Below, piece by piece: positions 28,536 through 31,004 of a DNA stretch of 64,000 nucleotides. The first letter of the stretch is position 1. Each line of letters opens with the position of its first letter. The DNA lies in IMG/VR virus record IMGVR_UViG_3300045988_161152; one strand, written 5' to 3'. Origin of the DNA: a virus (taxonomy: Duplodnaviria > Heunggongvirae > Uroviricota > Caudoviricetes). The notes beneath the pieces were generated by a model that worked only from the letters and a program-made list of their open reading frames with translations, was not told the origin of the DNA and made no database searches. Both the position numbers and the translations under genes were made by a program.

Positions 28536-30796
28536 AAGAGCTGTGCTATGGATCTGTTTGCAGTGGAATTGAAGCCGCGAGTATTGCCTGGGAACCGTTG
28601 GGTATGCGTCCGGTGTGGTTTGCTGAAATCGAGTCTTTTCCATCTGCCGTTCTTGCGCACCGCTGGCCCCATGTCGCCAACCTTGGCGACATGACAAAAC
28701 TTGCCAAAAAAGTCCTGGCTGGGGAAATCGAATCCCCTGATGTGCTCGTCGGGGGTACGCCTTGTCAGGCATTCAGTATCGCGGGCTTACGTGGTGGGCT
28801 TGATGATGAACGCGGCGCGCTAACTTTGAAGTATGTGGAGCTTGCAAATGCAATTGACGACAAACGGTCTGAGTCCTTCCTCAAACCGACAGTTATCGTC
28901 TGGGAAAATGTCCCAGGAGTCCTGTCATCGGCAGATAACGCCTTCGGATGTTTCCTTGCCGGATTGGCTGGAGAAGATGCGCCATTTGAACCAGGTGATC
29001 GACCTGAATCAGGAAAAAGTAACGCGTTCTGGCGGTGGGATGGCAAAACCGGTTGCCATGCTCCAAAGTGGCCGCAGTGTGGTTGTATTTATGGACCGCA
29101 GCGAAAGGTGGCCTGGAGAATCCTTGATGCCCAATACTTCGGAGTGGCACAACGACGCCGACGCGTGTTTGTTGTCGCAAGTGCTCGAACAGACCTCGAT
29201 CCCGCAACGGTACTTTTTGAGTTCAAAGGCGTGCGCCGGAATATTGCGCCGAGCCGAAAAAAGAAGGAAATCGCTTCCGCCATTATTGCAAATGGCGCTG
29301 CAATCAGTGGCGAAAGCCTAAATCCATGCCTACACGCTGACATGCCACCCGGTATGAAATCGACGAAAGCCGTAAACGCTTTCAGGATGGCAGCATTTGG
29401 GGAATATATTGACGATGAAACCGCATCGACAGTAAAGGCAAGAGATTTTAAAGATGCCACTGACCTTGCCGTTTTTAGCAGCACAGGAGCAGGTTTTTGG
29501 TCAGAAGGGCATGGTACATTGCGGGCACGTGAGCAAGAAAGCCATGAGCATCTTGTTACATTGGCTTTTCCTGAGCGTATGAGCGGTACACAACATGCTG
29601 CAACTAAGAATACTTCACCATCTCTAATGGCTAAAAATCCAACAGCTGTTTGCTATGAAGTAAGAAACGCAGAAGTAGCTGTCCGCCGTCTTACCCCTGT
29701 CGAATGTGAAAGGCTGCAAGGTTTTCCTGATGGGCATACGTTGATCCCGACGGAAAAGCGTAAAAAAGTTAATTCAGATGAACTGGCATATCTTCGCAAT
29801 CACTATCCAGATTTAAGCGAAGAAGAGGCCGCGATGCTTGCAGCTGACGGACCGCGTTACAAAGCGATCGGCAATAGTATGGCAATACCAGTAATGCGCT
29901 GGATTGGCGATCGGATTACTAAGTCCGTATGTCGGCAGAAAGAAGGAAGTGAAACAAAAGAGCGAAAAGTTAAACCAGCGGCAGAATTCGAACGGTCCAT
30001 ATTCAAATGGGCTGGTGGAAAATTTGGTGTTCTGGAACAAATCTTTCGCTATTTGCCAGAAGGGAAGCGCCTGATTGAACCTTTCGTTGGTGGCGGAGCT
30101 GTCTTCATGAATGCCGGATACCAGGAAAATCTGCTAAATGATGTGAATGCTGACCTGATTAACTTTTACAAGACTCTGCAACGCGAGGCGCATTCACTTA
30201 TCACTCTGGCACATCGTTTCTTCCAGGACTACAACACACAGGAAGGATACCTGGCAGTACGGAATGCGTTTAACAAACAAGTCTATGATGATTTACATCG
30301 CGCAGCGGCGTTTTTGTTCCTGAACCGACATTGTTTTAACGGATTGACGCGTTACAACCAGGCCGGTGAGTTCAATGTCGGTTATGGGAAGTATAAAACT
30401 CCGTATTTCCCATTACAGGAGATGGAAGCCTTCCTCGGTGCGGAAGGGCGGTCTGAGTTTGTATGCGGTGATTTTGCAGCGGTGATTGAAGCTGCCGGAG
30501 AAGGAGATGTCATCTTTTGCGATCCGCCGTATGAACCGCTTCCAAATACAGAGGGATTCACGAACTATTCCGGTCATGACTTTAAGTTTGAAGAGCAAAA
30601 ACGCCTGGTGTCTCTGTTGACGGATGCTCATCGTCGAGGTGCAAAGGTTCTCATTACTAACAGTGGCGCGCCAAACATCAGAGAGCTTTATCATGACAGT
30701 GGCTTCAGAGTGGAACCTCTTTTTGCCAGACGTTCTGTGTCTTGTAAGGGGGACACTCGAGGTGTAGCTCATGACGTTTTGGGTATATTGCTCTAA
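28532..30796 (+). CDS. dmt: bifunctional DNA methyltransferase: N-terminal C5-cytosine MTase-like, C-terminal Dam-like N6-adenine MTase
   Basis: 754 aa; N-terminal PCQ (GGTPCQAFS) and ENV (VWENVPG) motifs; C-terminal FKWAGGK and DPPY (FCDPPYEP). Confidence 0.85.
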
Positions 30797-30814
30797 TAAA
30801 TTTATTAGTGTAAT
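30787..30814. promoter_or_regulatory. bipartite C1 operator: perfect ATTGCTCTAATAAATTT overlapped by an inverted second site (aaatttattagtgtaat)
   Basis: 30787-30803 is a 17/17 consensus match. Confidence 0.65.
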
Positions 30815-30977
30815 ATCGCCTCAATGAATCGTGATTTATAGAGCGATTTAGCTGTTAGCCGCGACAGGCGCGGCGGTAAGCATGGCTGGGCCTAGTCCTC
30901 CCAGACAAACCACCGAGTTGCCAGGTTGACCATGCGCCTAAGTGGCAACTCCGAAGTGCGTTACGAGCTTCCAGTTT

Positions 30978-31004
30978 GCCCATCTTCGGGTGGGCGTTTT
31001 TTTT
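30978..31004 (+). terminator. strong intrinsic terminator (GCCCATC-UUCG-GGTGGGC + T8)
   Basis: 7-bp stem with UUCG tetraloop followed by TTTTTTTT. Confidence 0.7.

Follow-up and report, generated by a model that had tools for sequence, protein, structure and literature searches.

The untranslated leader of the ban operon in phage P1 and its relatives contains a structured RNA domain of about 100 nucleotides (nt) that is also present directly in front of the small RNA DicF in lambdoid prophages, and in P1 as in the lambdoid loci this domain is followed by an intrinsic terminator. The leader was analysed in a 64,000-nt stretch of viral DNA (IMG/VR record IMGVR_UViG_3300045988_161152; the window, below, means the whole of this stretch), which overall is P1-like at 99.5-99.9% identity; within it, positions 30700-31700 are 99.9% identical to phage RCS47 and 99.5% identical to phage P1. 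DicF is one of the bacterial small RNAs known for longest, P1 is a classic phage, and the sequence just 5' of DicF forms a conserved structured domain in more than 80% of complete Escherichia coli genomes that is common to P1-type plasmids. On balance, we think it somewhat probable that the ban-operon leader is a DicF-type module that serves both as a small-RNA gene and as an attenuator. The interval comprises the regulatory region of the P1 ban operon together with its untranslated leader; the operator, the promoters and a 'dicF-like' label are already on record. No earlier description of the delimitation of the domain across genera of the Enterobacterales, of its absence from Rfam or of the swapping of 3' modules behind it was found in searchable sources, the 2004 P1 genome paper and the 1994 dicF survey lying outside that scope.

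A conserved domain shared by the ban leader and the dicF locus

A sensitive BLAST search with positions 30815-31010 of the window returned two classes of match, namely P1-like plasmids that match over the full length and sequences that match over a 95-nt core (window 30859-30953). Of 5426 complete E. coli genomes, 4415 carry this core, at an identity of about 77% and with a median of two and up to eight copies per genome; lambdoid phages match it as well. Pattern scans added 120 viral contigs and 17 genome contigs with the domain, the latter including Citrobacter, Serratia symbiotica, Trabulsiella, Erwinia tracheiphila and Izhakiella, and about 500 P1-type plasmids carry it. In the K-12-type Qin prophage the domain is situated between ydfC and dicB (locus L003, 3995-4105) and ends 17 nt upstream of the 52-nt Rfam match to DicF (L003, 4122-4173).

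A covariance model of the domain, R1, was built from 33 non-redundant sequences and finds one copy per locus at 95-134 bits. Because P1 sequences are among the 33, the match of the window to R1 (97.9 bits, E = 1.5e-23, model positions 1-112 of 112) is partly by construction; independent support for the homology comes from the BLAST similarity between P1 and Qin. R1 detected no second copy, either in the window or in the lambdoid loci whose PR side was searched, and an Rfam search with E up to 10 assigned the domain to no family, whether in P1 or in Qin. The domain and its predicted helices lie in the window as follows:

30853-30960, plus strand: conserved structured RNA domain ('dicF-upstream domain', model R1)
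30859-30863/30869-30873, plus strand: helix P0, a hairpin
30874-30877/30912-30915, plus strand: helix P1b (CGGU/ACCG)
30880-30885/30930-30935, plus strand: pseudoknot, GYAUGG with CCAURC in the P3 loop
30886-30890/30900-30904, plus strand: helix P2, a variable hairpin
30916-30923/30943-30950, plus strand: helix P3, a hairpin

As modelled, the domain holds four helices and a likely pseudoknot; a small inner helix inside the P3 loop is also part of the structure that was counted. Pairs were counted on an alignment of 100 sequences (66 distinct rows, 31 pairs, 2046 cells). Paired cells make up 93% of the total, against 35-50% when the partners are slid by 1-3 columns, and 12 of the 31 pairs are changed on both sides, against 1-3 in the slid controls; none of 500 shuffles reached any of five measures, figures to be read in the light of the alignment having been fitted to the model, which favours the structure. 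Of the covarying pairs, P3 has six and P2 four, with a single one in P1b and another in the pseudoknot. Helices P3 and P2 are well supported by compensatory changes, as where Izhakiella has GUAACCA/UGGUUAC in P3 in place of GUUGUCA/UGACAAC, and the single covarying pair of P1b stands among otherwise invariant pairs. In the pseudoknot, GCAUGG/CCAUGC of P1 corresponds to GUAUGG/CCAUAC of P7 and Qin. Many unpaired positions are invariant across genera. An outer closing helix, GUUGUGG/CCRCAAC, encloses the domain in lambdoid copies and is missing from P1. A preliminary description of this DNA had treated the leader of about 170 nt as featureless; some 100 nt of it are instead a conserved structured domain common to lambdoid dicF loci.

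An intrinsic terminator behind the domain

A hairpin and T-run follow within 170 nt 3' of the domain in 101 of 102 distinct copies (191 instances) at the threshold used, and even in the exception (L130) a weak hairpin and T-run are still there. The terminator is the constant part of the 3' module, and what separates it from the domain is not. The spacer from P3 to the terminator stem ranges from 3 to 76 nt (27 nt in P1), and the segment between domain and terminator belongs to several unrelated types: DicF, GGCGGUACCAG..., GGCGGGUAU..., GGCGGAAAUGG... and, in P1, GCCCAUCUUCGGGUGGGC. It varies within the P1 lineage too: in plasmid NZ_CP159120 (L127, 2900-3200) it is shortened to about 15 nt. 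This plasmid retains the domain but has no C1 operator (Op72), and five transfer RNA (tRNA) genes follow.

In the window the terminator occupies 30977-31004, with the stem GCCCAUC/GGUGGGC (30978-30984 with 30989-30995; 7 bp, one G.U pair), a UUCG loop, U8 at 30997-31004 and a folding energy of -12.8 kcal/mol. All 79 related copies compared retain the hairpin, with U6 to U8, and in the L127 plasmid the stem is conserved with C-G/G.U changes. The earlier claim of a strong intrinsic terminator with a 7-bp stem, UUCG loop and T8 is therefore upheld by stem, energy and conservation, a generic terminator scan by itself being at chance level (4 found, 3.5 expected).

In lambdoid phages of the cdtI/2H10 type, the domain sits in a non-coding PL leader, about 270 nt beyond a PL close to consensus and ahead of the first PL gene. 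The same layout is seen in phage 2H10 (L149, 4206-4745), cdtI and Stx2c phages. Just past the 2H10 terminator, and again before the first PL gene, is an inverted repeat of about 15 bp (ACAAAACAGAGAAGA...TCTTCTCTGTTTTGT) that may be an RNase III site. Comparison with PHROGs revealed no N-like antiterminator among the PL-proximal open reading frames (ORFs) tested beside the domain. A variation on the arrangement occurs in Serratia, Trabulsiella, Erwinia and Izhakiella (L135, L144, L146 and L147), where a long terminator hairpin is found about 60-130 nt past the domain. The loop of this hairpin contains a Shine-Dalgarno-like AGGAG followed by AUGUUCUACCG..., a small ORF with its start inside the terminator.

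Operator, promoters and leader RNA

The remaining features of the control region and leader are listed here by position:

28532-30796, plus strand: dmt (DNA methyltransferase), 754 codons in the ORF list, its last codons overlapping the operator; dmt is annotated in P1 and RCS47
30771-30802: predicted promoter P2ban, from the P1 GenBank annotation
30787-30803, plus strand: C1 operator Op72a (Obana), 17/17 consensus match; AF234172 68667-68683
30788-30816, plus strand: promoter P1ban, -35 TTGCTC at 30788-30793 and -10 TAATAT at 30811-30816, transferred from the P1 GenBank annotation
30798-30814, minus strand: C1 operator Op72b (Obanb), 15/17 match; AF234172 68678-68694
30823-31004, plus strand: primary leader RNA of about 182 nt as predicted from promoter annotation and terminator, likely Pban start to end of the U-run
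30825-30850, plus strand: 5' hairpin UGAAUCGU...GCGAUUUA of the minimum-free-energy fold, specific to the P1 lineage (P1, P7, E. albertii plasmids)
30951-30976, plus strand: variable segment that differs among lineages, at the position of the 5' part of mature DicF in Qin; candidate small-RNA seed
30977-31004, plus strand: intrinsic terminator, 7-8 bp stem, UUCG loop, U8 (fold and conservation)

The sequence ATTGCTCTAATAAATTT, the 17-bp asymmetric C1 operator, is matched at all 17 positions on the plus strand, and the second, inverted site overlaps it with two mismatches. C1-type sites with up to three mismatches number 15 in the window against 0.18 expected from shuffles, an 80-fold excess, and both operator copies are position-for-position identical to annotated P1 features. 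The perfect operator with an overlapping inverted site at the 3' end of dmt was thus correctly described from the start.

The P1 record AF234172 (also NC_005856) annotates Obanab, formerly Op72ab, as a divalent C1 operator inside which dmt ends and which overlaps the promoters P1ban and P2ban; the operator is described there as controlling ban, and C1 repression of ban transcription is taken here from that annotation. The promoter positions are likewise those of the P1 annotation, carried to the window at offset +27199, because a generic sigma-70 promoter scan did not detect Pban. Transcription likely starts at about 30823, 7 nt past the annotated -10, and not near 30815 as in the preliminary description. 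Between Pban and ban, the record annotates no further plus-strand promoter. The gene order in the 3' direction is given as tRNA-Asn, tRNA-Thr, plp/upl on the opposite strand, tciABC, tRNA-Ile and ban.

The same record carries a misc_feature, 'dicF-like region', at 68791-68892, corresponding to about 30911-31013 of the window and thus to the 3' half of the leader. This label is correct for the locus, but the similarity is to the stretch in front of DicF and not to DicF itself, a point on which the label is silent. In contrast to the present analysis, the record includes neither a structure nor conserved-domain boundaries nor a terminator feature.

The leader (30823-31004) folds at -65 kcal/mol (z = -1.9). 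Contrary to the earlier statement that it holds no ORF longer than 5 codons, a 15-codon ATG ORF is present at 30882-30929, and a TTG ORF of 41 codons (39 from ATG) runs from 30926/30932 to 31051, crossing the terminator. In P7 the shorter ORF reads ATG GCG GGG TAG, and indels in the loops of homologues are not multiples of three and break the frames. Because neither ORF is conserved, the leader is best read as non-coding, and a protein-coding leader was rejected.

Comparison with DicF, StxS and HK022 put

The closest known system is the dicF locus of Qin. DicF arises by intrinsic termination and 5' processing by RNase E, and read-through of its terminator leads to dicB (PMC9438474, PMC5069750). 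The Qin locus and the ban leader share the order of a conserved domain of about 100 nt, a short segment, an intrinsic terminator and further operon genes, and the two domains are homologous, scoring 98-134 bits with one model, R1. They differ in that the 3' segment of P1 is unrelated to DicF and other genes lie downstream, and in that the DicA-controlled promoter of dicF is about 0.8 kb upstream, whereas the promoter in P1 is C1-controlled and immediately upstream. DicF proper was rejected as a candidate in P1 for want of a match to the family model RF00039.

Other phage systems resemble the ban leader in layout. StxS is a regulatory small RNA of phage origin, processed from a promoter-proximal transcript that ends at a terminator (PMC7547250). 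Like it, and like lambda 6S RNA of the PR'-tR' leader of lambdoid late operons, the ban leader places a terminator at once behind a phage promoter, and read-through would express the operon (PMC7547250). Unlike the P1 promoter, which is repressed in the lysogen and for which no antiterminator protein is known, the StxS promoter is constitutive and read-through depends on Q; the two leaders have no sequence relation. In phage HK022, RNA alone is able to antiterminate (PMC9378689), and HK022 put shares with the domain its position as a structured nascent RNA between an early promoter and terminators in phages that have no recognisable N protein (PMC9378689). However, put consists of two stems in about 70 nt, whereas the domain has about 100 nt with four predicted helices and a pseudoknot, in a single copy per genome. 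R1 gave no match at HK022 putL, located via a published primer, or at putR, with filters off included, and homology to HK022 put was rejected.

Proposed action of the leader

Because the layout in P1 is homologous to that of the lambdoid dicF locus, termination, trimming and read-through are proposed for P1 too; the RNA species of P1, their processing and the role of the domain we infer from this comparison. In the lysogen, C1 bound to the divalent operator Op72ab would cover Pban. Once C1 is lost, polymerase would start near 30823 and transcribe in order the pseudoknotted domain, the lineage-specific segment and the terminator. Polymerases that stop at the terminator would leave a leader RNA of about 180 nt, which RNase E would probably trim to a terminator-bearing small RNA of about 30-55 nt with targets unlike those of DicF; the sequence AG↓UUU at 30973-30977 fits the RNase E motif RN↓WUU. 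Polymerases that read through would enter a transfer-messenger RNA (tmRNA)-like gene, the tRNAs, tciABC and ban. The domain itself may act in cis on the fate of the transcript, through processing and stability or through read-through of the terminator.

The preliminary description had offered a repressor-controlled small RNA and an attenuator as alternatives. Both are compatible with the findings, and they are probably two outcomes of one element. The attenuator was to gate a tRNA-tci-ban unit; tRNA genes do lie downstream, but the tmRNA-like gene comes first, 3 nt past the T-run.

If the domain governs processing or read-through, this would account for the expression of ban and the P1 tRNAs in spite of the strong terminator before them, and for that of the left operon in lambdoid phages that lack N. 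The swapping of small-RNA 3' modules behind one domain in prophages also points to DicF-like regulators still to be discovered, one of them in P1. The strict conservation of the domain, the constant terminator and the nutL/putL-like position favour a role at the terminator. Against such a role stand the lack of a conserved alternative pairing in P1, the loss of the domain from phage D6 and the lack of similarity to put. Tentatively, and with confidence well below even, one may go further and suppose that the domain is a new class of phage cis-regulatory RNA outside Rfam that controls the adjacent terminator, in a put-like manner or by sensing a host signal, and that it gates the early operons of P1 and N-less lambdoid prophages with interchangeable small-RNA 'cartridges' (DicF and at least four others) behind it.

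Several observations weigh against reading the leader as a DicF-type module. RF00039 has no match in the P1 window at E up to 10, compared with 76.7 bits in Qin. The duplex energy of the P1 segment with the ftsZ leader is no better than that of shuffled sequences, a crude measure by which DicF itself is non-significant, and complementarity of the segment to the 64-kb window is at chance level; with no complementarity above chance, small-RNA function gains no support from targets. The candidate seed is also partly paired in the minimum-free-energy fold. In the domain, the fitted alignment favours the structure, as noted above, and the pairs of the pseudoknot other than the single covarying one are invariant. 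Phage D6 (L150, 2440-2530) has a precise deletion of the domain and retains the terminator, the tmRNA-like gene and the downstream genes, so that at least one relative can dispense with the domain. Finally, the searchable literature contains no expression data for the P1 leader RNA, and P1 transcriptome papers are silent on it. As a separate observation, a strong hairpin precedes the site both in D6, where it follows pmgS, and in NZ_CP159120.

Competing explanations

Among the alternatives, the one that survives best is that the domain is a cis-acting antiterminator RNA like put of HK022, whereby the nascent domain binds polymerase and carries it past the adjacent and perhaps later terminators; early-operon expression in P1 and N-less lambdoids would then depend on the domain, and the small RNA would be a by-product. 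That the domain always lies just upstream of an intrinsic terminator, in an early operon whose distal genes need expression, fits this idea well, as do its nutL or putL position in the non-coding PL leader of cdtI/2H10-type phages and the failure to recognise an N-like protein in any PL-proximal ORF tested. Invariant unpaired nucleotides across genera are expected of an RNA that binds a conserved macromolecule, and HK022 provides the precedent for antitermination by RNA only (PMC9378689). Yet there is no detectable similarity to HK022 put, the architecture differs too, and a second copy on the PR side was not found in the lambdoid loci searched. Transcripts reading through from dmt would carry the domain as well, so it cannot mark Pban transcripts specifically; D6 is without the domain yet has the terminator, and a single plus-strand terminator was found in 30400-33700. 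We regard this explanation as possible and rather unlikely.

A lower probability attaches to the domain being a sensor, either riboswitch-like or an aptamer that binds a factor, through which a host signal would set the balance of termination and read-through. Riboswitches usually have this layout, with a compact, highly conserved and pseudoknotted domain immediately in front of an intrinsic terminator, and in lambdoid copies the domain has an invariant GGCGGUA that is found again in the 5' strand of the terminator stem (GGCGGUA...) and could compete for the 3' strand. This relation is absent in P1, however, where the terminator is GCCCAUC/GGUGGGC, and a fixed expression platform is made less likely by a spacer whose length (about 3 to 76 nt) and sequence both vary. 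No Rfam riboswitch is matched, and the gene context gives no metabolic hint.

Equally doubtful is the view that the domain is itself the functional product, released by RNase E as a stable, trans-acting structured RNA that binds, for instance, a host protein, with the terminator merely ending the transcript. It would account for the better conservation across genera of the domain than of the 3' segment, which is swapped or shortened (as in L127), and the lambdoid closing helix GUUGUGG/CCACAAC does make the domain a self-contained unit, but P1 is without that helix, no protein-binding motif was recognised, and the constant terminator within 170 nt is left unexplained.

It is very improbable that the terminator simply ends transcription of the dmt operon and that the leader is functionless recombinational debris from a lambdoid phage, for although the ban operon has other pieces related to lambdoid PL operons, such as an STnc100-like sequence before tciA, and D6 manages without the domain, P1 and P7-type plasmids have both retained it and differ in it by compensatory changes, about 500 P1-like plasmids carry it, and the terminator is downstream of Pban, not between dmt and Pban.

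The downstream region

The tmRNA-like gene has its 5' part at 31007-31200, where the 5' tRNA-like half begins GGGUUUUCGUCAUGGUUAGCGAC. A tag-like frame at 31067-31099 encodes ANDDLMMVAA*, pseudoknot-like hairpins are present, and a possible 3' tRNA-like half lies at 31640-31700. The Rfam tmRNA models match only below threshold, and ARAGORN calls a tmRNA only at a relaxed stringency of 80% and only once the block that lies between two copies of CACAACAGGTAAGGG and holds tRNA-Asn and tRNA-Thr is taken out. Homologues were found in 332 phage records from very different families (Ackermannviridae, N4-like, T1-like and P1-like), and the 10-codon AND...AA* frame is kept in all 132 copies collected, with synonymous changes in the Ala codons. 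An exhaustive survey of ssrA in 2014 found none in RefSeq plasmid or viral genomes except those of mycobacteriophages (PMC4131195).

The element at 31640-31700 (plus strand), opposite the annotated plp, is unannotated. It is tRNA-like, with a 7-bp acceptor-like helix, one arm and the T-arm GAGGGUUCGAAUCCCU, encodes no CCA and is absent from P7; it is this element that serves as the 3' tRNA domain in the spliced tmRNA-like call of ARAGORN. The 15-mer junction motif CACAACAGGTAAGGG occurs three times, at 31186, 31625 and 31840, and bounds the tRNA block, and an inverted partner, CCCTTACCGTTGTG, at 31698 forms a stem of about 16 bp around the tRNA-like element. The same pair of motifs, CACAACAGGTAAGRGC...GYGCTCTTWCCGTTGTGG, is found in T1-like and other phages on either side of inserts that vary greatly and lie past the tmRNA-like core. 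The junction motif may be a processing signal or a recombination linker; GTTGTGG/CCACAAC recurs as the helix that closes the dicF-upstream domain in lambdoid copies.

STnc100-like sequences are found at 32398-32517, before tciA (39 bits in Rfam, below the gathering score of 47), and, by motif, at 31706-31845 as well. In Qin, the STnc100 family is directly past the DicF terminator (L003, 4185-4325). By comparison with Qin, the tmRNA-like/tRNA/plp/upl block of P1 therefore has the appearance of an insertion that separates a DicF-type terminator from an STnc100-type leader.

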